Under the pieces are notes generated by a model. It was not told the DNA's origin and did no database searches. It saw only the letters and a list, made by a program, of their open reading frames with translations. Made by a program: the position numbers and the translations under genes. Below, piece after piece: positions 1,350 to 43,623 of a stretch of 64,000 nucleotides of DNA (position 1 is its first letter; every line of letters begins with the position of its first letter). Origin of the DNA: Deferribacterales bacterium (GTDB taxonomy: Bacteria > Chrysiogenota > Deferribacteres > Deferribacterales > Geovibrionaceae); the NCBI GenBank assembly GCA_050251945.1, contig JBFWLW010000012.1, forward strand, positions 1 to 64,000, given 5' to 3'.

Positions 1350-2572
1350 TGGAATCCGTTAATGTATTCATCGAAGTTAAAGGGGAGTATATTAAAGCCG
1401 GAAACCTTATAAGCACTGGCGTTGATATGCTATTTGAGTATGACGAAAAATATAGCCTTAATGGTCTGTCGCTTATCCTGCCTGTAGAAGAAAGACTGTT
1501 TGAAGGCACTGAGGCTCGCATATTCTTTGAAAACCTCCTTCCTGAGGGTGAGCAGAGACAAATCATATCGAGAGCTACGAAAATATCATCTGAAAATGTA
1601 TTTGGCTTGCTCAAACGCTTTGGCGGTGAATGTGCCGGAGCTGTTGTGATAACTCAGGAAGATGACCTTAGCGGTACTGATAATAAATATAAGCTTCTTA
1701 AAAAGGATGACATTCTTTCTCTGATTGAAAAATTGGATCAAACAACACCAGCTGAAGATAATGATATGTACCGCCTGTCACTTGCCGGCGCACAGGCAAA
1801 GACATCTGTCAAAATAGAAAATGATAAAATTTACCTCCCGTACGGTAACTCGCCAAGTACTCATATTATAAAACCATTCAATAGATTATTTAGTGGTCTG
1901 CCTGCTAATGAACTGTTTTGTAATCAGCTCGCAAAAGAATGTGGCTTACCAGTCTGTAATACAGAAATTAGGAAAGTAGGCAAGCAGTCAGCACTGTTTA
2001 TTGAAAGATATGACAGGTATATAAATGGCGACAAAATATGCCGTTTGCATCAAGAAGACTTTTGTCAGGCGTTGGGTTATTCATATGCTGTAAAATACGA
2101 ATTAGAGGGAGGTCCCAGCTTCTCAGATTGCGTAGACTTGGTCGTTAAGCAATCTGCTCAGCCTGCCGCAGACAAAATGTTGCTGGTTCGTTGGTTTATA
2201 TTCAATTACCTTATTGGCAACGCAGATGCACATGCTAAAAATATATCTCTTATCTATCCGGAGAATATGAAAGGGCGACCTGTGCTGACGCCATTTTATG
2301 ATTTAGTCTGCACCTCAATATACAGAGGTATTTCCAGTAAAATGGCGATGTCAGTGAGAGGAGAATTTGAACCATCTAAAGTTTTTTCACAACATTGGTC
2401 AGAATTTTGCGATGTCTTAGATATTAAATATAAGGTGTTTCATAGGTATTCTAATGAAATTATTTCTGCAATTTTGCGGTCAGAGATTTATGTTACCCCT
2501 GCAAATGAATTAATTGGTAATATCTGTGATGTAATAAAAGATAGAATTGAACGTTTACAAGAAAATAATTAG
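1349..2572 (+). CDS. hipA: HipA-family Ser/Thr kinase toxin
   Basis: FFENLLPEG, SLAGAQAK P-loop, IERYDR, HQEDFCQ, GNADAHAKN, PFYDL motifs. Confidence 0.92.
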   Translation: MESVNVFIEVKGEYIKAGNLISTGVDMLFEYDEKYSLNGLSLILPVEERLFEGTEARIFFENLLPEGEQRQIISRATKISSENVFGLLKRFGGECAGAVVITQEDDLSGTDNKYKLLKKDDILSLIEKLDQTTPAEDNDMYRLSLAGAQAKTSVKIENDKIYLPYGNSPSTHIIKPFNRLFSGLPANELFCNQLAKECGLPVCNTEIRKVGKQSALFIERYDRYINGDKICRLHQEDFCQALGYSYAVKYELEGGPSFSDCVDLVVKQSAQPAADKMLLVRWFIFNYLIGNADAHAKNISLIYPENMKGRPVLTPFYDLVCTSIYRGISSKMAMSVRGEFEPSKVFSQHWSEFCDVLDIKYKVFHRYSNEIISAILRSEIYVTPANELIGNICDVIKDRIERLQENN

Positions 2573-2825
2573 TTTATTATTTTGACATCCTTCCCGTGTT
2601 TAGAGATCCTTGAACAGTTGTAACGTTACGACCCTATTCAAACTTTCGTTTTACAAGTTCATTGTGCAGCGCTTCTAAGTTTTTAATGCCTTCGGTGGGG
2701 GACTCGCTTTTTGTCTGCCTGCGTCGTGCAGTCAGCCCAAAAAACCAGTCTGCTCACTTCCGCCGACATCCTGTCGGCTCATCCTCCCTACTCGGTCGGC
2801 GTTCGCATCCGTTCGAGTCCCCCAA

Positions 2826-2867
2826 ATACAAAAAGACCCATGTCATAAGACATGGGTCTTTTTGTAT
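2826..2867. terminator. Intrinsic terminator-like hairpin just beyond the displaced tRNA 3' end
   Basis: ATACAAAAAGACCCATGTC-ATAA-GACATGGGTCTTTTTGTAT perfect inverted repeat with A/T tails. Confidence 0.75.
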
Positions 2868-2922
2868 GCCGAGGGGGGGACTCGAACCCCCACAGGATTA
2901 ACTCCCACAGGTACCTGAAACC
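2866..2922. repeat. Left att site (57-bp duplicate of tRNA-Leu 3' portion)
   Basis: ATGCCGAGGGGGGGACTCGAACCCCCACAGGATTAACTCCCACAGGTACCTGAAACC identical to 43538-43594. Confidence 0.95.
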
Positions 2923-2943
2923 GTCGCGGCTATATTCTCCCGT

Positions 2944-3068
2944 TTTATCTCTGTTTATCACTGTTTATAAAATAGCATATTTGCAATGCTTTAACTTAAC
3001 CGTCTTGACAATGCCGTTTATCTCTGTTTATCTCTGTTTATCTTTTGATAAGTGTAAATCAAGTGTAA
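2944..3068. repeat. att-arm repeats (10-bp tandem units and AAGTGTAA pair)
   Basis: Two arrays of about three GTTTATCTCT-like units (2944-2969, 3016-3043); AAGTGTAA at 3050 and 3061. Confidence 0.65.
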
Positions 3069-3078
3069 GAGGCAGGAA

Positions 3079-4290
3079 ATGAAGTTGTATAGTACATCGT
3101 CGACTGGTGTCTATTATTACGAATCATCATCAAAGCGGTATCGCGGAAAACCGGACAGATGCTTCTATATCAAGTATTACAACAAAAATAATCAGCAAAA
3201 GCAAGAAAAGGTTGGATGGGCTTCAGAAGGCTGTTCCGTCGCCTTTGCCGCTCAGATCAGGAATGAACGCTTATCCGTATCAAGAGGTCACGCTGACGGA
3301 ACGCACGACATGTCCGTTTCTGCGGCGGTTGAAAAATATAAAGAATACACAAAGACACACAACAAAAGTTGGGAAGAGGACTGGCAACGTGTAGCATCTT
3401 TTGATCAGATGTTCGGCACGATGTATCTCTCGGAAATAAGACCGAACCATATTGATAGTTATCTTAATACACTGCGACAAAAGAAAATCAAAAAGAAGGA
3501 CAAGGGCACGGGGAACGTGTCTGAAGTCTTTATCACTGAATGTACAGTTAAACACTATCTTACTATTGTCAAAAGGATGTTTAGCTATCTAACAGAGTTG
3601 GAAATGTACGATAGAGTGAACCCGGCGAAAGCGGTCAAAATTAAGAAATACGATAACACTATCGTTGAATGGCTTATACCTGAAGAACTGGAGCGGTTTA
3701 TTAAAGTATGCAGTTCCGGAAAATACAAAATGCACGGCGGGGAGTTGATGTTATTCGCTCTCTATACCGGCCTTCGCCGTAGCTCAGTGTTTCGCATGAA
3801 ATGGTGTGACGTTGATTTAGTAAAACAGACGTATACGCTTAAAAACCAGAAAAACGGCAAAATTACAACAATTTATATGTCAACCAAAGCTGTTGAAATA
3901 CTACAAAGACTGACACGTCCGTATCAGTATGACGCACTCATTTTCCCCGGACTAAACGGTAGGGAACGAGTGAACATTGATACATTGTGGGCGCGTGTTA
4001 AGAAAGACGCAGGAATACGTCAGCATTTCCGGTTCCACGACCTCCGGCATAATTTCGCAACAATGCTGAGAGAGGAGGGGGTCGATTTGGACGTGGTAAG
4101 CAAGATGCTTTCGCACAGCTCTGTCACAGTCACACAGCGGTATGCGCACATCAAAGACCGTCGATTACAGTCGGCGGCTCAATCTGTAGACGCAATGTTC
4201 TCTCGCTGGGGTTCTGAAGACGTTGGCTCTCGTGCAGATACGCAGAAGGCGGCGGACACCACCTTCGACAACGACGGCGAAGGTGATTAA
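3079..4290 (+). CDS. int: Tyrosine integrase
   Basis: ALYTGLRR, FHDLRHNFAT, LSHSSVTVTQRYAH catalytic motifs; directly beside the att repeat. Confidence 0.95.
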   Translation: MKLYSTSSTGVYYYESSSKRYRGKPDRCFYIKYYNKNNQQKQEKVGWASEGCSVAFAAQIRNERLSVSRGHADGTHDMSVSAAVEKYKEYTKTHNKSWEEDWQRVASFDQMFGTMYLSEIRPNHIDSYLNTLRQKKIKKKDKGTGNVSEVFITECTVKHYLTIVKRMFSYLTELEMYDRVNPAKAVKIKKYDNTIVEWLIPEELERFIKVCSSGKYKMHGGELMLFALYTGLRRSSVFRMKWCDVDLVKQTYTLKNQKNGKITTIYMSTKAVEILQRLTRPYQYDALIFPGLNGRERVNIDTLWARVKKDAGIRQHFRFHDLRHNFATMLREEGVDLDVVSKMLSHSSVTVTQRYAHIKDRRLQSAAQSVDAMFSRWGSEDVGSRADTQKAADTTFDNDGEGD

Positions 4291-7439: not shown

Positions 7440-8219
7440 ATGGGCGAAGTAGTAGAGATAATGAAATTTGAGGGTGCGGAGATGATGGCGCACCCGTCAC
7501 CTGAACACGGCAAAGTTCTCAGCACTGCGGACGTAGCAAAGGGCTACGGATGCAAAGAGGGAGCTATCAGAAGCCACCTGTCACGTCATGCTGACGAAAT
7601 CATCGACGGCAAGCATTTTATTACTGTTGCAAATTGCGACAGTAATCCGAAGGCAGGAATCCCACATCAGAAAACCTACTGGACACCGCGCGGCATCATG
7701 CGCCTCGGTATGTTCATCAAGAGCGACCGCGCAAAGCGTTTCCGCGATTGGGCAGAAGACGTGCTTTTGTCCGAAGTCCGGACAGCAAGGCTAGCGAATC
7801 CTGAAAAACGGCTGGACAATATTTCGGTATGCATCGCTCGGCTTTCGAGAGCATCGAAAGACCTTGAGTTGAGCAAGTCTGAGAAAATCGCGATGATAGA
7901 TGCGCTCACTACGCGTGAGCTGGGGTACTCAGTGTTTCCTGCGGTCGAGCCGCTGCCGGATCGTCCGGCAAAAACTTTTATGTCTGCAATCTGCGGACAT
8001 GACCTTATGTTTTTTGATTACCTCAACGATGACGAACGCGTGATGGTAAAACATGCGTTTGCTGTCGGGAGGATCGCTCAAAACTTTTTGATATCAATCT
8101 ATAGAGAATACACGAAAAACTATGGACAGAGCTCAAAAGCGGCAATGGTCGAACTGCGCGAAAACGCAAAAATCGGCGAGGCTGTGAGCAGTAACGGAGC
8201 GAGGTACATACAGATATGA
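7440..8219 (+). CDS. Phage antirepressor (ORF6N/Bro-like N-terminus)
   Basis: LSTADVAKGYG..IIDGKHFI..YWTPRGIMRLGMFIKSDRAKRFRDWAEDV. Confidence 0.75.
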   Translation: MGEVVEIMKFEGAEMMAHPSPEHGKVLSTADVAKGYGCKEGAIRSHLSRHADEIIDGKHFITVANCDSNPKAGIPHQKTYWTPRGIMRLGMFIKSDRAKRFRDWAEDVLLSEVRTARLANPEKRLDNISVCIARLSRASKDLELSKSEKIAMIDALTTRELGYSVFPAVEPLPDRPAKTFMSAICGHDLMFFDYLNDDERVMVKHAFAVGRIAQNFLISIYREYTKNYGQSSKAAMVELRENAKIGEAVSSNGARYIQI

Positions 8220-8449
8220 TGAAACCGAACAGAGCGGTCAAAAATTTGCGTCGGCGGGTGGAGATGTTGTCCGCCCGTACCGTGCTGTTAGAACAATACA
8301 CGTCGTTGGGTCTGACGCAAACCGACATCGTGAACGCACTTGGTGAAAATAAGTCGGCTGTCAGCAATTATTTTGCTGGGCGGCTTGATTCCGAGGACAT
8401 GGATAATTGTGTTAAGCGGCTGATCAGCAGTCGGGGAGTCGCGGTATGA
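8216..8449 (+). CDS. Cro-like HTH protein
   Basis: GLTQTDIVNALGENKSAVSNYFAG; ATGA overlap with the upstream gene. Confidence 0.7.
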   Translation: MMKPNRAVKNLRRRVEMLSARTVLLEQYTSLGLTQTDIVNALGENKSAVSNYFAGRLDSEDMDNCVKRLISSRGVAV

Positions 8450-8570
8450 AATGGATTGAACGTCTGTATCGTCGTTTTTTCCGCAGAAGACAGCGGAAAA
8501 TCGACACAAGACCCAGATATATCGACGGAAAACTGGTAATTCTCGACGGTTGTCGGGTGGAGAGCATGTG

Positions 8571-9056
8571 ATGAAAGAGGCAGATACAAGAGCAACGTAC
8601 GAACTCACGAGGTTGTTAATGTGGGAGCTGAAGGAAAAGAAGGGTTTCACTATCGCGGAAATAGCAGAGGCGGCGGGTTTATCTCCAAAAACCGTTGAGA
8701 AATACCCGGCGGAAGGCTGCCCGACAATGCAGACAGTAGTTGCTTGGATCAGGCATTTCCGCCCCGTTGAAACCATGAAGTATTTAGCGAAGCAGGGCGG
8801 CGGGTTATACGTCATGCTGCCCGAAAGCGGCGGGCAGGTATCAAAGATTCTTGAGGGTCTTTCCGCACTCGGGACAGAGTTCTCCGATGTAGTTTCAAGT
8901 GTAAGCAAGGCTATCAGTCCCGCCAGCGACGGCGGAAGTGAGATCACGGTCGGCGAAGCAAAAGACCTGTTGGCAGAGGTTAATCAGGTTGTTGAAAAGG
9001 CGCTCTCGTTGAGCGAGGCGTTGAAAGAGGTTATCAATGGGCGCAATAAGATATAG
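8571..9056 (+). CDS. CII-family phage regulator
   Basis: N-terminal HTH (TIAEIAEAAGLSPKTVEKY) and helical C-terminus (EFSDVV..DGGSEITVGEAKDL). Confidence 0.6.
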   Translation: MKEADTRATYELTRLLMWELKEKKGFTIAEIAEAAGLSPKTVEKYPAEGCPTMQTVVAWIRHFRPVETMKYLAKQGGGLYVMLPESGGQVSKILEGLSALGTEFSDVVSSVSKAISPASDGGSEITVGEAKDLLAEVNQVVEKALSLSEALKEVINGRNKI

Positions 9057-9225
9057 CTGTTTCGTCCTTGTTTTCAGGGACAAGAAGCTTGTGTGGAAAG
9101 GCGGGATAAAAGTTTCGGCTGATGATGCCGCCGGAGCTGTTAAAGCGGCGATCCGCAAGGCTAAGTCCCTGCATCAGGGGGCTTATGTACACGTCCCAGA
9201 GAAAAACAATCCGAGGGTGTTATGA
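9037..9225 (+). CDS. Small hypothetical phage protein
   Basis: GAGG SD; overlaps both neighbours in the operon. Confidence 0.5.
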   Translation: MGAIRYSCFVLVFRDKKLVWKGGIKVSADDAAGAVKAAIRKAKSLHQGAYVHVPEKNNPRVL

Positions 9226-9542
9226 CAATCGAAACACAGATAGCGGACGCAGTGGCGGCGGCAGTGCGCCCCATGATTGAGGATGTTCGGAATCAGTTAA
9301 AGCTGATCCAGTCCGCGCCCATTTCGGAGACGTACAACCCTGATAGGTTGTACACAGACATAGAAGCGTCGGAACTGTTGAAAGTACCCGTTCAGACACT
9401 CAGAATGTGGCGCTCTGAAAAACGCGAGGTGCCTTTTGTAAAACTCGGTTCGTCTGCACGTTACAGAGCTAAAGATATCCGCGCATATCTCGACAGATCA
9501 ACGATGAAAATTGTTGACGAAAAAGGGCGAGTGAGGGGTTGA
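9222..9542 (+). CDS. Excisionase-like winged-helix protein
   Basis: LYTDIEASELLKVPVQTLRMWR..PFVKLGSSARYRAKDIRAYL. Confidence 0.8.
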   Translation: MTIETQIADAVAAAVRPMIEDVRNQLKLIQSAPISETYNPDRLYTDIEASELLKVPVQTLRMWRSEKREVPFVKLGSSARYRAKDIRAYLDRSTMKIVDEKGRVRG

Positions 9543-9997
9543 CGATGAGATGTACAGAAGACCTTTTCAGATTGATAGCACCTACGGAAACTGAATATTA
9601 CTGGCTCATGAACTGGCTGGCAGTGAGATACCAGACCGACGAACTGTCGGATGTGGTTGTAAAAATTACCGGAGACGACGGCGGCGCGCTTTCAGCAATC
9701 CTTGAAATGCTGCTGGGGGAAGTTTTTGGACGCGGAATCAACGTCCTGCGGCTGCACGAACAGCAGATAACATATATCGCACATAAGCGCCGTCAGAACG
9801 TGATCATTGTAGAGCAGTGGTACGATGAGCAGATAAATGGCATACGCAAACCGATTCAGGTTTTCAATGTTCTCCGCTGCCCTGCTTTCACGCTCGCGTT
9901 TATTGAGTGCCTCCACGACGAACTTACGGCGTTCAAAGAGTTTCTGCAATCATACGAAACAGATATGACAATTTATAGCACAAGGGGTGTGGCATGA
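9539..9997 (+). CDS. Degenerate SF3 helicase paralogue with broken Walker A
   Basis: YYWLMNWLAVRYQT..GDDGGALS aligns by eye to YYAWFMNWLAGFFQT..GDQGSGKS of 11599-13101. Confidence 0.7.
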   Translation: MTMRCTEDLFRLIAPTETEYYWLMNWLAVRYQTDELSDVVVKITGDDGGALSAILEMLLGEVFGRGINVLRLHEQQITYIAHKRRQNVIIVEQWYDEQINGIRKPIQVFNVLRCPAFTLAFIECLHDELTAFKEFLQSYETDMTIYSTRGVA

Positions 9998-10536
9998 CAC
10001 AGCACGCATTCAACATAGCTGACTATCCTGTGGATTTTGCAAAGTTTAAGGGGATTGTAGAAGCCTTGGCACGTGTGATGCGTGACCCGCATAGCGTCCT
10101 GACACCAAGATACGTGAGTAGCTGTTCGCCAGCGATACGTGTCCCTCATAGTGTCCCGACCTCCGCTTTGGTTATGTGGTTTATTTATTGGTCTGCATGT
10201 TCAATACAAAACCGTAAAGTTTGCAAGCTTAATATAATTGATAATCAGTATCTCTTTTATGATTTTATTATATGCCTCGGTCTTGCTTTTCCGCATTGTA
10301 AAAACATAACTTATTTGAGGGAAAGGCAATATTGCCGTTCTATTGCCGATGTTGAAATCATAGGCGACTGGGCTGACTATTTGGGCATTATAGAGTTTGG
10401 CGCTGATGAATTTGTATGTTTAAGAACGTATTTAAGATGCGTCAGCACAAACGACATCCCGCGCTCATACTCCCACGACGACAGTTATCTTGATGTTGTA
10501 GAACATCTCAAATCCCAGCCGTCGGTGTTCGCATGA
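9994..10536 (+). CDS. Hypothetical protein, possibly a second more diverged helicase paralogue
   Basis: MWFIYWSACSIQN..LFYDFII resembles AWFMNWLAGFFQT..MFFEHVL; coupled start/stop codons. Confidence 0.55.
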   Translation: MTQHAFNIADYPVDFAKFKGIVEALARVMRDPHSVLTPRYVSSCSPAIRVPHSVPTSALVMWFIYWSACSIQNRKVCKLNIIDNQYLFYDFIICLGLAFPHCKNITYLRERQYCRSIADVEIIGDWADYLGIIEFGADEFVCLRTYLRCVSTNDIPRSYSHDDSYLDVVEHLKSQPSVFA

Positions 10537-11372
10537 AAATGTCAATTTCGAACGGAGACATGACATACGGCTACCGCACTGTTGATGTGCCGTTCCTGCG
10601 TCTCGTGGAGGTTACGTCTCGGTATAATTATTCTGTTGGTCTGTACAGCAACGGACACCGCCACAGAGACAATCTTGTTGGGATGTCCAGCTTGCTCATG
10701 TATGACTTTGATGATGGATATCCACTTGACGAGTGTATCGCATTTTTCGAGAGCGTAGACATCACCGCTTTTTTCGCGACAAGCCGAAACCACCAAAAGA
10801 TCAAAAGCGAGACAAAACCCGCTTGCGACCGTTACCGCCTTTTTATCCCTTTCAATCAGTCAATTGCTCTGCCCTTCGGGGAGTACCAGAGTTTCTATAT
10901 GTATATCGCCGCTCTCTTGGGGCTTGATGAGCTGAACGATCACGCGACACAAGATCCCGTACGCTTTTTCTTCCCGAACCCCGATCAGCAGACGCACCTC
11001 GTAAATACCGGACAAGTTCTTGATTTCCCTCTTCTGCGCGACAATTGGGCTGTATATAGTTCACAACAAAAGGAAATCAAACAGACAGAACAGAAAAAAC
11101 AGAAAAAGAACTGGAAACCAAATAACAGTTCTGCGGGCGGACTTAAAGAAAACGAACTTCCGAAATCCCATCCCATAGAAACAAAGAAAGGCACTTTCAG
11201 CTTTGAACATTTCGAGTATTTACGGGGAGATGAAACAGCCCCCTGCCGATGCCCTGACCCTGCGCATGCTGACCGCAACCCGTCCGCATTTGTCGGTCGG
11301 TCAAAAAGTTCCGGCGGTCTGTTTGTGAAGTGTTTGAGCTGCGGATACGCCAAATTTATGGGAGCGAAATAA
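10533..11372 (+). CDS. AEP-type primase/primase-polymerase with C-terminal zinc finger
   Basis: LMYDFDDG (DxD), TSRNHQ, RYRLFIP, D-ATQDPVRFFF; CPDPAHADRNPS..CLSC. Confidence 0.75.
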   Translation: MKMSISNGDMTYGYRTVDVPFLRLVEVTSRYNYSVGLYSNGHRHRDNLVGMSSLLMYDFDDGYPLDECIAFFESVDITAFFATSRNHQKIKSETKPACDRYRLFIPFNQSIALPFGEYQSFYMYIAALLGLDELNDHATQDPVRFFFPNPDQQTHLVNTGQVLDFPLLRDNWAVYSSQQKEIKQTEQKKQKKNWKPNNSSAGGLKENELPKSHPIETKKGTFSFEHFEYLRGDETAPCRCPDPAHADRNPSAFVGRSKSSGGLFVKCLSCGYAKFMGAK

Positions 11373-11599
11373 TGTACGTTACAGCTTTTTTTGAACAATA
11401 TCAGGGATATTGCATAGATAGCATTGGCGAAGAAATAGGCATATGTAAACCCGGCGCGAGGGTACTGGAATTGATTACATATGCGGAGCTTTTTCCTGAA
11501 CTTGATCTCGTAAATATTGATGATTTTCTGGCCTATTGCAAAGCCACGGGCGAACAACCTGCGGCGGTGATAATAAACACGTTTACGCGGGAGTGGTAA
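11372..11599 (+). CDS. Hypothetical phage protein
   Basis: TAATG coupling at both ends, between primase and helicase. Confidence 0.55.
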   Translation: MYVTAFFEQYQGYCIDSIGEEIGICKPGARVLELITYAELFPELDLVNIDDFLAYCKATGEQPAAVIINTFTREW

Positions 11600-13101
11600 T
11601 GTCGGACGAAAAAAAGCAGGGAAAGAAAAAACCGTTCAATCACGAGATGCTCCCTCTTGAACAAGGGAAAAAGTATCTTCTGGATATAAAGCGGAAACAG
11701 TCTTTCAGCAAGTTTGTTGTAAATAACTGGCTTCGGGAGATGATAGACCGCGACATTGAAGATTTGGAAGAAGTCGAAAATCTAGTGTTGAGGCGTATTT
11801 TCAAACATGGAGCGGCGATCTGGTTGTCTCCCGAAGGCAACATAGTTTATCGCCCATCGGTTGATGCAGACCCTATAGAATTAAGCAGTGATGAACGTGC
11901 GAAACGCGTTTTCTGTTCGATGATGAAAGAGAAAAATATCAAGCTGTTCAAAGGGTTCACCGACAAGGACGGCGTACATCATAAAGCAGATATTCAAGCG
12001 CAGGAGCTTCTTGTAGTCTCAGATGAATTTACACCGTTCGCGGCTTCTGAGTTTTATGTGAAAGATGGCCTCTGGAAGCGTACAAGTTTCCGCCCCACAT
12101 CTTTTATGCTGATTAACAAGCCTACAAAATTTCCGTATCCAGAGAACATAGACAAGCTGATCCAGAACTTATGTAACAACAACGCTGATTATTACGCGTG
12201 GTTTATGAACTGGCTTGCTGGTTTCTTTCAAACTCTTCAAAAATCCCACGTTGCGGTCGTTATGCGCGGTGATCAGGGTTCCGGTAAATCAATGTTTTTT
12301 GAACATGTATTGATGCCGTTATTCGGCGAAAAGCATTGTGTTGTTGTTGATCAGGCCCGTATCGAATCCCAGTTTAAAAACTGGATACAGAATGTACTGT
12401 TTTACAATCTGAACGAAGTCGCTGTGGATATGAAAGGCAGAAAATATCTGAAAAACTTTCTGAAACAGCTTGTAACAGATACCACTGTTCAAGCTGAACT
12501 TAAACACAAAGATGCCGCTGTTGTCCCGATATACGGCAATATATACATCACATCAAACGAGGCGCTTCCTGTTGAGATAGAGCCGTCCGACAGGCGTTTC
12601 ACGGTATTCCAGACCGGAGGATCGCTCAGAAAAATGGGCTGGAACACGGCGGAACTTGTAACAAACATCCAATCGGAGCTTGTGAATTTTGCGAAATTGC
12701 TGAAGACGATGCGTGTAGATTGGGAGATGTACAACACAGCACTTGATACACCGGAAAAAAGAGCAATTCAGAGCGGTACAAACAGTAAACTTTCACTCTT
12801 TATTCAAGCGCTGCTCGGCAAAGATATCCTCTATTTTGCGGAGCTGGCGGACATCGGCAATACGGAATCGGAAAGAGAGAATAACAAGGAACTACACAAA
12901 CGTTTCACAGAGCAAATCACGAAAGGGAAGCTTAAGCAAGACGACCTGATTAAAGCTTATAAAGAGCTTCACGACGTTGATCACAGCAGTAAAAAAGTAA
13001 TGGAAAATATGCGTATGCTTGAGCCCGTTATATTTGCGAAAGAAAAGTTTCAGAGCAGTAACGGCGGCAAATGGCTAACGTTTCCATGGGGTGAAGAATG
13101 A
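11599..13101 (+). CDS. SF3 (D5-like/DUF5906) replicative helicase
   Basis: Walker A GDQGSGKS, LNEV Walker B, ITSNE motif C, SDRRF arginine finger. Confidence 0.88.
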   Translation: MSDEKKQGKKKPFNHEMLPLEQGKKYLLDIKRKQSFSKFVVNNWLREMIDRDIEDLEEVENLVLRRIFKHGAAIWLSPEGNIVYRPSVDADPIELSSDERAKRVFCSMMKEKNIKLFKGFTDKDGVHHKADIQAQELLVVSDEFTPFAASEFYVKDGLWKRTSFRPTSFMLINKPTKFPYPENIDKLIQNLCNNNADYYAWFMNWLAGFFQTLQKSHVAVVMRGDQGSGKSMFFEHVLMPLFGEKHCVVVDQARIESQFKNWIQNVLFYNLNEVAVDMKGRKYLKNFLKQLVTDTTVQAELKHKDAAVVPIYGNIYITSNEALPVEIEPSDRRFTVFQTGGSLRKMGWNTAELVTNIQSELVNFAKLLKTMRVDWEMYNTALDTPEKRAIQSGTNSKLSLFIQALLGKDILYFAELADIGNTESERENNKELHKRFTEQITKGKLKQDDLIKAYKELHDVDHSSKKVMENMRMLEPVIFAKEKFQSSNGGKWLTFPWGEE

Positions 13102-13445
13102 TGCTTGGCGACCATTTCAAACAAATTCTTGATGATGCCGCTGCGCGTGAGATTTTCATCGGCGAACTCCATGGCGGAAAGTGCAAATGCCCCGATTGCG
13201 GAGAGCTTCTCGGAAACATACAACGGTTTAAAGCGGGAAAGAAAGTGAATTGCGTTCGTTGTGGAAAATGGTTCAACTATGCAACCGGAACGTTTCTTTC
13301 CGGCGTTAAAATGAGCCCCGCAGTGCTGATGTCTCTGCTGATAATGCTGGACGAGGGGGTCGCCGACGAAACGATAAGCCGTTTGCTTGGGATATCTCTT
13401 GAAACTATCAGGTTGTGGCGTGTTCGCCGGAGGGAAAACGTATGA
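13098..13445 (+). CDS. Zinc-ribbon + HTH DNA-binding protein
   Basis: CPDCG..CVRCGKWFNYATGTFLSG then ISRLLGISLETIRLW. Confidence 0.7.
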   Translation: MMLGDHFKQILDDAAAREIFIGELHGGKCKCPDCGELLGNIQRFKAGKKVNCVRCGKWFNYATGTFLSGVKMSPAVLMSLLIMLDEGVADETISRLLGISLETIRLWRVRRRENV

Positions 13446-16148: not shown

Positions 16149-16366
16149 TGAATCTTGACGTGATTATGTGGGCGCTGACGATTTTGTCGGTTGTCGGTGT
16201 GGTTTTGAATATCCACAAAAGCCAGTGGTGCTTTGCTGTCTGGTGCGGTACCAATGCGGGCTGGGCAATCATAGATTATCGCGCGGGACTGTATCAGCAA
16301 GCGGCTTTGTTTGTTTTATATTTCGCCCTCTCTCTGTGGGGGCTGATCAAGTGGAGGCGGGCATGA
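16145..16366 (+). CDS. Small 3-TM PnuC-like membrane protein
   Basis: WALTILSVVGVVLNI..FAVWCGTNAGW..GLYQQAALFVLYFALSLWGLIKW. Confidence 0.65.
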   Translation: MMNLDVIMWALTILSVVGVVLNIHKSQWCFAVWCGTNAGWAIIDYRAGLYQQAALFVLYFALSLWGLIKWRRA

Positions 16367-17335: not shown

Positions 17336-18754
17336 ATGAACTACTTATCACTCTTTTCTGGTATCGAAGCGGCAAGCGTGGCTTGGGGTGTCCTCGGGTG
17401 GCAACCCGTTGCATTTGCGCAGTACGACCCCGAACACGACTACAGCAAGGGCTTGGACTATCCGAGCAGAGTTTTACAACACCATTACCCAGCCGTGCCG
17501 AACCTCGGCGACGTAACTAAAATTACGGAGGAAACTATAAATGGATTACGCGTTAGACCTGACGTTGTTGTTGGAGGCAGTCCCTGTCAATCCTTCAGTG
17601 TCGCCGGACTTAGAAACGGCATCAACGATCCTCGCGGCAACCTCGCTCTTGAGTTTTTGCGGATCGTTGATGCCGCAAGACCTCGCTGGGTACTCTATGA
17701 AAACGTCCCCGGCCTGTTATTGTCTGGCGGAGGACGTGATTTCGGGATCTTTCTCAGCACGTTGGGCGAGTGCGGGTATGGGTACGCATACCGAGTGCTG
17801 GACGCACAGTTTTTCGGAGTACCACAGCGCCGCAGAAGAGTCTTTGTTGTCGGACATCTTGGAGATTGGCGACCTGCCGCCGCGGTTCTATTTGAGCCCG
17901 AAGGCATGTCGGGGGATTTTGCTCCGCGCAAAAAACCGCGAGAGAGAGTTGCCGCATACACTGAAAGCCGCTTTGGAATGTATAGTGAAGGATGCGGAAC
18001 ATTACGAAGAAAAGGCGGTACGCAGGGCGATGGCTCGGAAACGCTCGTAGTGCATGGTACTCAAGACCCAATAACTGCCACGGAAACAGCATTTCCGCTC
18101 GGACGCAACAACGGACAGGAAAATGTGTTATGTTTCGATGCGCGGTGCAACGGCGACGGGAATACAGTTAACACGCTCACGGGTGACCACGCCGGACGAC
18201 CGACAGATTACACGCCTGTTATCGTCGCGATTCAGGCGAACATGATAAACCGCTCTGATAAAGCTGGTCCAAACGGCAAAGGATACAGTGAGGATGGAAC
18301 GATGTTCACTCTCACTAGAAAAGATCAGCACGCAGTTGCTATCTGCGATGCACCGCAGGCTTTCGCACAGAACACGCGGGACGAGGTACGGTATATCGGC
18401 GGCGATGGGCAGACTGTAGGCACTCTCTGTTCCGGAGTCGGAGCGAAACAACAGACGTATATTCGGCATGGGTTCACTGTCCGCCGCCTCACGCCGCTGG
18501 AATGTGAGCGCTTGCAGGGATTCCCCGACGGATACACGAGGATCCCCGAAAAGGTGCTGGCATCGAAGCCACGAACAAAGCATTTCGAGCGATTCCCAGA
18601 CATGTACGGCGAAAACCCGGACGGAACGTGGACAAAGTACGCGTGCGACAGCCACCGTTATGCGGCTTTAGGCAACAGCAAAAACACATATGTTGTCCGC
18701 TGGCTCGGTCGCCGCATCGAGTTTGTCGAAAGCGTTATGAGAGGTGAAGTATGA
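17336..18754 (+). CDS. DNA (cytosine-5)-methyltransferase
   Basis: SLFSGIE (I), GGSPCQSFS (IV), ENV (VI), PQRRRRVF (VIII), RRLTPLECERLQGFP (IX), RYAALGNS (X). Confidence 0.93.
   Translation: MNYLSLFSGIEAASVAWGVLGWQPVAFAQYDPEHDYSKGLDYPSRVLQHHYPAVPNLGDVTKITEETINGLRVRPDVVVGGSPCQSFSVAGLRNGINDPRGNLALEFLRIVDAARPRWVLYENVPGLLLSGGGRDFGIFLSTLGECGYGYAYRVLDAQFFGVPQRRRRVFVVGHLGDWRPAAAVLFEPEGMSGDFAPRKKPRERVAAYTESRFGMYSEGCGTLRRKGGTQGDGSETLVVHGTQDPITATETAFPLGRNNGQENVLCFDARCNGDGNTVNTLTGDHAGRPTDYTPVIVAIQANMINRSDKAGPNGKGYSEDGTMFTLTRKDQHAVAICDAPQAFAQNTRDEVRYIGGDGQTVGTLCSGVGAKQQTYIRHGFTVRRLTPLECERLQGFPDGYTRIPEKVLASKPRTKHFERFPDMYGENPDGTWTKYACDSHRYAALGNSKNTYVVRWLGRRIEFVESVMRGEV
17541..18050 (+). CDS. Overprinted alternative-frame ORF (M.EcoHK31I beta-like candidate)
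   Basis: 169 codons inside the C5 MTase in another frame; GGAGG at 17527-17531, 9 nt before ATG; ESLLSDILE..PRFYLSPKACRGILLRA. Confidence 0.6.
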   Translation: MDYALDLTLLLEAVPVNPSVSPDLETASTILAATSLLSFCGSLMPQDLAGYSMKTSPACYCLAEDVISGSFSARWASAGMGTHTECWTHSFSEYHSAAEESLLSDILEIGDLPPRFYLSPKACRGILLRAKNRERELPHTLKAALECIVKDAEHYEEKAVRRAMARKRS

Positions 18755-19596
18755 TTCCATACGTCGGCGGCAAGTCCGCGCTTACAGACTGGATAATCGG
18801 GACGTTCCCGGAGCACCGCGCATTTGTCGAGGTTTTCGGCGGCGCTGGCTGGGTCACTCTGGCAAAGTCTCCGTCCGATGTCGAGGTGTACAACGACATA
18901 GACGATGCGCTCATCAACCTGTTCCGTGTTGTTCGCGACACTCAAAAGTCAAAAGAGTTTCTGCGGCGGGCAAAATGGATGCTCCACTCTCGCGCGGAAC
19001 AACTGACCATGAGAAAAATATACCAGGACGACACCGCAAAAGACGACATTGATAAGGCTCTGGCATTTGCGTACTACATGACATGCTCTCGAAGCGGCAA
19101 ACGCAAGGGCATGAGCTTTAAGCTCAACAAGTCCGACAACGCTACCGCACCCGCCAGCTGGCAAAGTTTTCTCCGGCGCATAGTCGAGACAAGAAACAGA
19201 CTGCGCCCCGTTATCATCGAGAGCCTTGATTATGCCGACCTCGTTATGCGGTACGACAGTCCGGACACGCTTTACTATCTTGACCCGCCATACATCAAGT
19301 CCGACTATTACTACTGTGTGAACTGGAAATCAGCAGACCATGAACGGCTTGCTGGCGTTCTCCGTAACATAAAAGGCAAGTTCGTTCTCAGCTATTACGA
19401 CGGCGCCTATGTCAGGTCGCTTTATCCTGGTTCTCATTTCCTGACGAAAGAATCTGTCGTCAAGGTGTGGCACAGCCACGGCGGCGACGGCTCGGAAACA
19501 AAGCCGAGGTCAACGGAACTGCTGATAACAAACTTTCAACCGATGGTCGGCGGACAGCTCACAATTGAACACTACATGTCAGAGGTGCAGCGATGA
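18751..19596 (+). CDS. Dam-family (D12) DNA adenine methyltransferase
   Basis: PYVGGKS, FVEVFGGAG, YNDID, YLDPPY. Confidence 0.92.
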   Translation: MIPYVGGKSALTDWIIGTFPEHRAFVEVFGGAGWVTLAKSPSDVEVYNDIDDALINLFRVVRDTQKSKEFLRRAKWMLHSRAEQLTMRKIYQDDTAKDDIDKALAFAYYMTCSRSGKRKGMSFKLNKSDNATAPASWQSFLRRIVETRNRLRPVIIESLDYADLVMRYDSPDTLYYLDPPYIKSDYYYCVNWKSADHERLAGVLRNIKGKFVLSYYDGAYVRSLYPGSHFLTKESVVKVWHSHGGDGSETKPRSTELLITNFQPMVGGQLTIEHYMSEVQR

Positions 19597-20150
19597 GCTT
19601 GAATAAAGGTCATTTGACAGCAAATAGAGATACTCAGTCTGATGAAATGTATACGCCGTATTATGCGGCAGAGCCGATCGTCAAGTATATCAATCCGGCA
19701 CTGACAGTTTGGTGCCCATTTGACAAAGAATGGAGCGCATACGTCCGCATGTTTAGCAAGAACGGTAATCAAGTGATAGCTACCCACATTGACGACGGGC
19801 AGGACTTTTTCACATATGAGCCTGAGCACTATGATGTGATTATCAGCAACCCGCCCTTTTCTAAAAAAGATGCCGTGTTGAAGCGGCTTTACGAACTTAA
19901 TAAACCGTTTGCCGTTTTACTTCCGCTGAACAGTTTACAGGGAAAGGGTCGTTTTGAGATCTTCAAACAGGGGGGGGCTCAGATGCTTGTCTTTGATTCT
20001 CGGTGCGGATTTCATAACCCAGTTAGCATTGATAAAACAGTTGAAAATACACCGTTTGCCTGCGCTTACTTCTGCCGTGGCTTATTGCCATGCGACCTGA
20101 TTTTTGAGCAACTTAAACGCTATAAAAAGCCTCTGGAGGTACAGTCGTGA
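19593..20150 (+). CDS. Small phage amino-methyltransferase (NPPF type)
   Basis: DEMYTP, VWCPFD, GQDFF, IISNPPFSKK. Confidence 0.8.
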   Translation: MSLNKGHLTANRDTQSDEMYTPYYAAEPIVKYINPALTVWCPFDKEWSAYVRMFSKNGNQVIATHIDDGQDFFTYEPEHYDVIISNPPFSKKDAVLKRLYELNKPFAVLLPLNSLQGKGRFEIFKQGGAQMLVFDSRCGFHNPVSIDKTVENTPFACAYFCRGLLPCDLIFEQLKRYKKPLEVQS

Positions 20151-43537: not shown

Positions 43538-43594
43538 ATGCCGAGGGGGGGACTCGAACCCCCACAGGATTAACTCCCACAGGTACCTGAAACC
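43538..43594. repeat. Right att site (57 bp, 3' part of the intact tRNA)
   Basis: Identical to 2866-2922. Confidence 0.95.
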
Positions 43595-43623
43595 TGCGTG
43601 TCTACCAATTCCACCACCACGGC
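43539..43623 (-). tRNA. tRNA-Leu(CAG)
   Basis: Reverse complement GCCGTGGTGGTGGAATTGGTAGACACGCAGGTTTCAGGTACCTGTGGGAGTTAATCCTGTGGGGGTTCGAGTCCCCCCCTCGGCA: anticodon loop TTCAGGT, long variable arm, GTTCGA T-loop, CCA not encoded. Confidence 0.95.

Follow-up and report, generated by a model that had tools for sequence, protein, structure and literature searches.

The DNA analysed here, called the window below, is a stretch of 64,000 nt from a Deferribacterales bacterium (contig JBFWLW010000012.1, positions 1 to 64,000). It holds a prophage of ~40.7 kb flanked by a 57-bp repeat at a tRNA-Leu gene, and the closest related prophage is L007, from Deferribacteraceae bacterium UBA6793. The early region reads, in order, a leftward cI-like gene, antirepressor-like, cro-like, cII-like and xis-like genes, a miniature gene that we call mini, an open reading frame starting at 9994 (ORF 9994), a primase, a 75-aa ORF, a helicase and the terminase; the cI, cro and cII labels are based on helix-turn-helix (HTH) matches and position. 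The features that matter for what follows are these:

2866-2922, no strand assigned: attL, a 57-bp direct repeat with 43538-43594 (end of tRNA-Leu)
7440-8219, forward strand: antirepressor-like gene, an ORF6N/Bro-N-like N-terminus (below the Pfam cut-off) followed by a winged-helix-like copy of the helicase Tail at about 7959-8216
9222-9542, forward strand: excisionase-like HTH_17 gene (xis-like), adjoining mini on its upstream side
9545-9997, forward strand: mini, 150 aa, ATPase-dead stand-alone Body of an NrS-1-type SF3 helicase with an internal deletion of ~53 aa
9671-9694, forward strand: degenerate P-loop GDDGGALS, with DDGG invariant and Lys absent in 7/7 family members
9994-10536, forward strand: ORF 9994, 180 aa, possible second and more decayed Body paralog, under purifying selection (dN/dS 0.15-0.27)
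10533-11372, forward strand: primase-like gene, separate from the helicase, with a PHROG DNA primase match
11599-13101, forward strand: full NrS-1-type SF3 helicase (DUF5906) with intact motifs; Body at about 12148-12738, Walker A at 12268-12291, Tail at about 12775-13089
43538-43594, no strand assigned: attR, at tRNA-Leu(CAG) 43539-43623

The profile of the window helicase family matches PDB 6k9e/6k9c with an E-value of 2e-65. Primase and helicase are separate genes here, with the 75-aa ORF (11372-11599) between them, and are fused in NrS-1 polymerase. A zinc-ribbon and HTH gene at 13098-13445, between helicase and terminase, weakly matches an IS1595-type Zn-ribbon and is kept in most related prophages; at 17336-20150, three consecutive ORFs resemble DNA methyltransferases by motifs judged by eye. 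Promoter and terminator counts were at shuffle level, and no iteron array was prominent among the top repeat families listed. A 13-nt repeat shared by the antirepressor and helicase genes (8059-8083 and 12607-12631) was judged to be due to chance.

The earlier note had placed the mini ORF at 9539..9997. The frame is indeed open over that whole interval, with an alternative TTG start at 9539, but the likely start is the ATG at 9545, because a GAGGGG stretch resembling a ribosome-binding site lies upstream of it and a Met occupies the same position in the homologues of L007, L020 and L022. At its other end mini overlaps ORF 9994 by ATGA (9994-9997).

The collinear likeness of mini to the helicase at 11599-13101 was confirmed. 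Residues 18-62 of mini are 44% identical to residues 199-243 of the helicase (E 3e-9), with a Smith-Waterman score for this N-terminal block of 97 as compared to a mean of 32 and a maximum of 59 in 2000 shuffles; for the C-terminal block (116-147 against helicase 350-380), the score was reached by 0.2% of 2000 shuffles, and z was 7.1 on the helicase profile. Both blocks are joined in a single hhalign match of mini 4-147 to helicase 184-380 (97.5%, E 7e-12, 144 columns). Mini spans this part of the helicase only, with no HMM match of Head or Tail to it. The best AlphaFold2 model of mini has a pLDDT of 84 (67-71 for the remaining four), and this predicted model has the SF3/AAA+ Body fold with a helical N- and C-terminal subdomain. 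When it was used as a Foldseek query, the ten best matches were all NrS-1 chains; model residues 1-146 superpose on NrS-1 6k9c residues 404-603 with Z 13.6 and rmsd 2.7 over 144 aligned residues, followed by other SF3 helicases, and as described in PMC7102993 the NrS-1 segment comprises the Body domain (404-593) and the start of the linker. The ESM Atlas likewise groups mini with DUF5906 clusters (features 0.92, TM 0.81). Searches of mini against Pfam, PHROG and PADLOC gave no match at E 0.1, and Pfam DUF5906 (PF19263) matched none of the six mini-family members scanned, mini itself giving none at that threshold; two stand-alone Bodies from related prophages that are described below, P0007 and that of L023, score above the DUF5906 cut-off.

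The loss of the Walker A lysine reported in the earlier note extends to the whole family. The helicase loop GDQGSGKS is GDDGGALS in mini, and takes the form GDDGGAL, GDDGGSI or NDDGGVL in all seven members, none of which has the lysine (K230) found in 77/77 helicases; the consensus GxxGxGK[S/G] with its catalytic Lys (K453 in NrS-1) is thus absent from mini. Across the same 77 helicases G227, G229, K230, E273, K289, N320, D331, R332 and R333 are invariant, whereas the residues invariant in the mini family and not shared with helicases are R9, R28, K40, D45, G47, E90 and P113. The earlier note had also described the region of motif C and the arginine finger as apparently missing. This fits one of two registers for the deletion, in which helicase residues 288-344 (hairpin, motif C, Arg finger) are lost and which the helicase profile slightly prefers (257 bits versus 241-251, summed over 6 sequences). 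The alternative is loss of about 265-313 (Walker B, helix, hairpin), which is preferred by two stand-alone Body templates (770 versus 723 and 611 versus 583) and agrees with the modelled mini strand at 104-108, and from the alignments the two appear to fit about equally well. Under either register the lysine of the ssDNA-binding beta-hairpin (K525 in NrS-1; K302 in the window helicase by alignment) is deleted, as is one of two strands, so that the Walker B Glu, motif C Asn and Arg-finger pair do not occur together; nor is DRR retained in the window mini. Mini is homologous to NrS-1-type SF3 helicases yet fails every catalytic feature examined. In NrS-1, the substitution K453A is reported to abolish dCTPase activity, and K525A, R555A and R556A to abolish unwinding (PMC7102993). 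Judged by these mutant data, a protein without Head, Tail, pore hairpin and Walker A Lys would neither hydrolyse NTPs nor unwind DNA, and by this analogy mini cannot be a motor.

A gene that has lost this much could be a functionless fragment decaying after a recent duplication, and a graded decay among the paralogs (intact Body, mini, perhaps ORF 9994) is what such a process might leave. However, relatives of the window mini are found at 98.7% identity (P0009, two differences), 88-89% (P0008), 81% (P0002), 57% (P0003), 53% (P0106) and 31% (P0004), all of them are full length, and the frame is open in 7/7 sequences down to the most distant. In the two closest pairs dN/dS is 0.12 (window/L007; bootstrap CI 0.06-0.24) and 0.10 (L020/L022; CI 0.05-0.18), intervals far below 1 and values similar to those of xis in the same pairs (0.13 and 0.07); four distant pairs, with dS near saturation, give 0.28-0.46. 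The likeness of the mini gene to the helicase gene at the DNA level is moreover limited to one 34-nt stretch at 79%. Decay is therefore scarcely credible, provided that the gene is expressed. Two of the checks proposed in the earlier note, pairwise or HHalign comparison and dN/dS, thus came out in favor of its view of mini as an intact gene and an ATPase-dead SF3 derivative, one that is kept by selection: the alignment is significant, and neutral evolution with stops was not seen. The substitution pattern indicates a functional gene under purifying selection and no relic.

Mini is patchily distributed. Among the 17 loci surveyed, 16 have both xis and primase, and in this slot four of the 16 carry mini, 11 have only 9-104 nt of spacing and one (L023, also G005) has other genes, although several of the 16 are near-duplicates and these counts are not independent. 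Wherever context was available (4/4 prophages), mini lies directly after xis and upstream of primase. Its profile found strong matches in 2 of 68 genomes of the phylum, and extra Body genes were found only on contigs L020 and L022 among 58 viral loci scanned; a metagenome scan returned a full helicase only (L008). A tblastn search of mini against 50,697 phage records yielded one weak match to a primase (E 0.1), and the helicase core matched 269 phage records, at one place each, and 6 plasmids, but a copy that has diverged as far as mini would probably escape these phage- and plasmid-record searches. One plasmid record, H65, matches the helicase core at two places. Several candidates were set aside: a two-ORF match in L034 is one helicase gene (1667-3154) interrupted by an in-frame stop; P0005 and P0006 proved on reading their sequences to be repeat artefacts; and the match in G032 covers the C-terminal helix only, with no core HMM match.

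The earlier note had offered a helicase loader as one possible role, and mini might in principle be an obligatory assembly factor, given its position and coupling upstream of primase and helicase. Its absence from 12 of the 16 related prophages, in 11 of which xis and primase almost adjoin, argues against an essential loader, as does the description of the related SaPI Reps as self-loading in PMC9371898, and we regard this role as very unlikely. On the evidence of its alignments and predicted model, mini is a folded, selected and accessory pseudo-ATPase that consists of the Body only of an NrS-1-type helicase.

The description of mini as a copy of the phage's own helicase did not hold if it is taken to mean a duplicate that is recent or matched. 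Compared with L007, the window has a mini 88% identical and a helicase only 44% identical; likewise, the mini of P0009 is 98.7% identical to that of the window, and P0031, its putative helicase partner, is 45% identical. When the 77 helicases were ranked for each of four minis, the cognate helicase came 7th, 68th, 16th and 53rd, one of these pairings (P0004 with P0012) being presumed. A 40,207-nt contig in run X3 matches window positions 8414-10046, where 126 letters differ, and passes over primase, helicase and terminase. In the same contig, window position 16360 is joined to 2866, a junction to be expected of a circular or permuted phage genome, and the contig is a mosaic of window-like and L007-like modules. 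In trees, the minis form one clade (100/99) on a long stem that joins P0007, with a long-branch warning and unstarred support; the first tree was built under a cutting rule that skipped eight helicase rows (4 among the 40 chosen), and the second included 16 helicases. An AU test did not reject an origin of mini within the lineage of its own helicase (p 0.23), so such an origin may still be compatible with the sequences. Because of the long-branch warning and this result, we infer the order of events rather than read it from the trees: a stand-alone Body gene with intact Walker A, similar to P0007, may have been duplicated in the slot between xis and primase and then have lost catalysis.

In this prophage family, the early operon contains several genes derived from the helicase, of which mini is one. 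P0007 (L020, 2821-3432) is a 203-aa Body-only protein with the same boundaries as mini but with intact Walker A, hairpin Lys, motif C Asn and RR; in L020 it lies in tandem, directly after mini and before the ORF 9994 homologue, and it has the motif NWLAVR.QT in common with mini. In L023, the reverse-strand gene 10769-11569 encodes a stand-alone 266-aa protein, comprising an N-terminus of ~60 aa and an SF3 Body with a GVQSSGKS loop and HR in place of RR. This gene directly precedes and overlaps an antirepressor-Tail gene and is collinear with a helicase, an arrangement that resembles a duplicate helicase cut in two by an antirepressor domain. ORF 9994 may belong to the same group. It resembles the mini family in hhalign (54%, E 1.2e-4) more than the helicases (10%, E 0.003), its score of 26.2 exceeds the maximum of 21.8 in 100 column shuffles and the 10-14 obtained for six neighbour families, and it shares W-F-x-x-W-x-A and ERQY with mini and the helicase Body, a weak profile likeness. 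It is present in three of the four mini prophages, L022 having mini without it. These likenesses are suggestive only of a further-decayed Body paralog; if the paralogy holds, the slot between xis and primase would be an array of one to three Body paralogs.

The helicase Tail, too, has been copied. The Tail copy on the antirepressor-like gene is found by HMM with E 9e-8 among 1593 ORFs, and its model superposes on NrS-1 618-717 with Z 9.6 and rmsd 2.5 over 85 aligned residues. Fusions of this kind occur in 8 prophages (window, L007, L020, L022, L023 and L031-L033), the N-terminus being ORF6N-like or Bro-N. When the predicted recognition helix and wing of the Tail copies were compared with those of the helicases across four lineages, the cognate arrangement ranked first of 24 possible pairings (sixth for the helix alone), although these segments were hand-picked after seeing the alignment; whole-Tail similarity followed the cognate helicase in L007 and the L031 group only. 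There is thus some sign in the sequences that the Tail copy tracks its helicase, and no such sign for mini. The helicase and antirepressor-Tail genes of L023 share a 33-nt stretch at 85% identity. The 3' ends of these two genes also have a 40-nt repeat in common (3922-3961 and 9990-10029, 80% identical), possibly through gene conversion of the wing.

One could envision, then, that mini works together with the antirepressor-Tail fusion: the Body and the Tail of a helicase duplicated long ago would re-associate in trans and regulate origin binding or transcription. All five prophages with a Body-only gene carry the fusion, the Body gene of L023 is placed next to it as it would be in a helicase, and C-terminal domains of SaPI Rep are described as domain-swapping onto the neighbouring ATPase body (PMC9371898). 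On the other hand, L031-L033 (3/8 fusion prophages) have no Body copy, and between the window and L007 the Tail has been replaced (19% identity) while mini stayed at 89%. We thus consider this partnership improbable.

We tentatively favor the explanation that mini is a nucleotide-free cap that brakes the ring assembly of NrS-1-type helicases, a possibility to which we give limited confidence and each step of which we infer. Mini would cap a helicase subunit on one side: its acidic dead P-loop (DDGG, with the invariant K40 and E90 nearby in the fold) would take the place of the nucleotide and receive the arginine-finger face (K289, D331, R332, R333) of that subunit, and since it has no Head, Tail or hairpin, the ring could not be extended. 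We conjecture from the alignment that DDGG acts as a phosphate mimic. Since its synthesis would closely follow that of xis and closely precede that of primase and helicase, mini might hold replication back or restrain it when the prophage is induced, for instance until excision, and relatives that co-infect the cell could be hampered as well. Consistent with a cap are the Body-only boundaries and fold, the loss in 7/7 minis of catalytic residues invariant in 77/77 helicases, purifying selection like that on xis, the position between xis and primase in 4/4, and in L020 the tandem Body with intact Walker A, the same boundaries and NWLAVR.QT. In addition, NrS-1 polymerase is reported to exchange between monomer and hexamer (PMC7102993), which makes assembly a step that can be regulated.

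Several observations are at odds with a cap. Mini does not co-vary with the helicase, minis 88% and 98.7% identical occurring beside a helicase that is 44-45% identical. Such co-variation is expected only of a cognate-specific inhibitor, however, and because the arginine-finger face is invariant in 77/77 helicases, a cap would act on any NrS-1-type helicase; the constancy of this target would account for mini's independence of its own helicase. NrS-1 that lacks the Tail alone is described as monomeric, the Tail being needed for the hexamer (PMC7102993), which implies that Body-Body contacts are weak and that mini would need to have gained affinity. The absence of mini from 12 of 16 related prophages also counts against a cap, and if mini poisons the helicase of its own phage while being expressed together with it, some step must release the helicase, and none is known. 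A prediction of the complex that mini might form with the full helicase scored 0.00 (mark 0.32), its controls having failed to fold, and counts neither for nor against binding.

Alternatively, mini may be directed at the host, as a dead mimic of the fold that fills, but does not activate, a host sensor for phage replication ATPases, or as an inhibitor that binds another host factor. Under this explanation, the main rival to the cap, the array of one to three Body paralogs per phage would be a diversifying counter-defence slot. It could account for the observation that mini ignores its cognate helicase but is conserved (88%) in prophages of same-genus hosts, for its accessory and patchy occurrence, and for its faster divergence between lineages (52-56%) than that of the helicase (82-83%). 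There is also a precedent for sensing of an ATPase fold regardless of catalysis, bacterial Avs20 being reported to bind the RecA-type fold in this manner (bioRxiv 10.64898/2026.01.04.697583). As described there, though, Avs20 senses RecA/SF4-type folds and not SF3, and a faithful mimic would be more likely to trigger such a sensor than to block it. In this analysis no sensor of SF3 helicases came to light, and plain linkage to xis and cII (83-92% for that pair) would look just like the apparent tracking of the host. We therefore regard a decoy or host-directed inhibitor as possible but rather doubtful.

Mini could also have become a scaffold with no remaining link to helicase or sensor, serving a new ligand or partner, such as a metal or nucleotide site (D44, D45, K40, E90) or a heterodimer with ORF 9994. 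The family-specific invariant residues named above, the long stem branch of the mini clade and the adjacency of ORF 9994 in 3/4 would agree with this, but the position beside replication genes (4/4) and the co-occurring helicase pieces would be left unexplained, and L022, with mini and no ORF 9994, speaks against the heterodimer. We think such a scaffold unlikely.

Returning to the nucleotide-free cap, a broader and more speculative version, in which we place rather little confidence, is that the helicase has been disassembled into a control kit for the early operon. A tandem Body array (intact P0007-type, dead mini, more decayed ORF 9994) would cap or poison NrS-1-type rings of the phage itself or of competitors via the phosphate-mimicking dead P-loop, accompanied by an antirepressor Tail copy with a recognition helix and wing that follow the cognate helicase.

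We thus conclude that mini is a real, selected pseudo-ATPase in a small prophage family and part of a larger reuse of helicase domains; judged from its sequence it is probably a brake or a decoy, with a putative partner. If mini caps rings via the invariant arginine-finger face, it would be a small, lineage-independent inhibitor of SF3 helicase assembly and would provide the prophage with a means of timing replication against excision, and if the control-kit reading is true, a phage pseudo-ATPase subunit would regulate a hexameric replication motor. A decoy, in turn, would point to an unknown host sensor of SF3 helicases. Because full helicase, intact stand-alone Body and dead, deleted Body form a series in comparable prophages, the birth of a pseudo-ATPase is traceable and testable here, and because the window helicase is close to the crystallised NrS-1 enzyme, the assays already exist. 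Judged from listings, we found no description of a pseudoenzyme derived from a phage replication motor in the open-licence PMC and bioRxiv literature.

Of known systems, the nearest is NrS-1 polymerase's helicase domain (Body 404-593; PDB 6k9c/6k9e/6lrb; PF19263 DUF5906), which has the fold and boundaries of mini (Z 13.6) and in which K453 is reported to be essential (PMC7102993). Unlike it, mini is a stand-alone gene with no Head or Tail, with ~53 aa deleted including the equivalent of the KN-hairpin, and without the Walker A Lys. A separate SF3 helicase-domain-only protein, described as monomeric, is made by a virus in the case of AAV Rep40/Rep52 (PMC3375335). Like mini, these consist of the SF3 helicase domain only, and Rep40 structures are among the fold matches of mini (Z 6.7). 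The gene that encodes the initiator also gives rise to Rep40/52, in which the ATPase motifs are retained; mini, by contrast, is a separate, diverged and catalytically dead gene with an internal deletion. Control of replication through the helicase's own domains links the present case to phage P4 alpha with Cnr and to SaPI Rep. The antirepressor Tail copy, which is winged-helix-like, weakly matches the origin-binding domain of P4 alpha (1ka8, Z 4.8). In P4, that domain is bound by Cnr, a small and unrelated protein, whereas the candidate regulators here are paralogous pieces of the helicase. The C-terminal winged helix of SaPI Rep is reported to bind iterons, and origin binding by NrS-1-type Tails is described as untested in the same source (PMC9371898). 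Mini also keeps an enzyme fold after loss of its catalytic residues, as do the exapted enzymes of orthopoxviruses. These are said, in a study of that genus, to be inactivated virus enzymes of host origin that have taken on structural roles; unlike them, mini derives from a phage replication motor and sits in an early operon.
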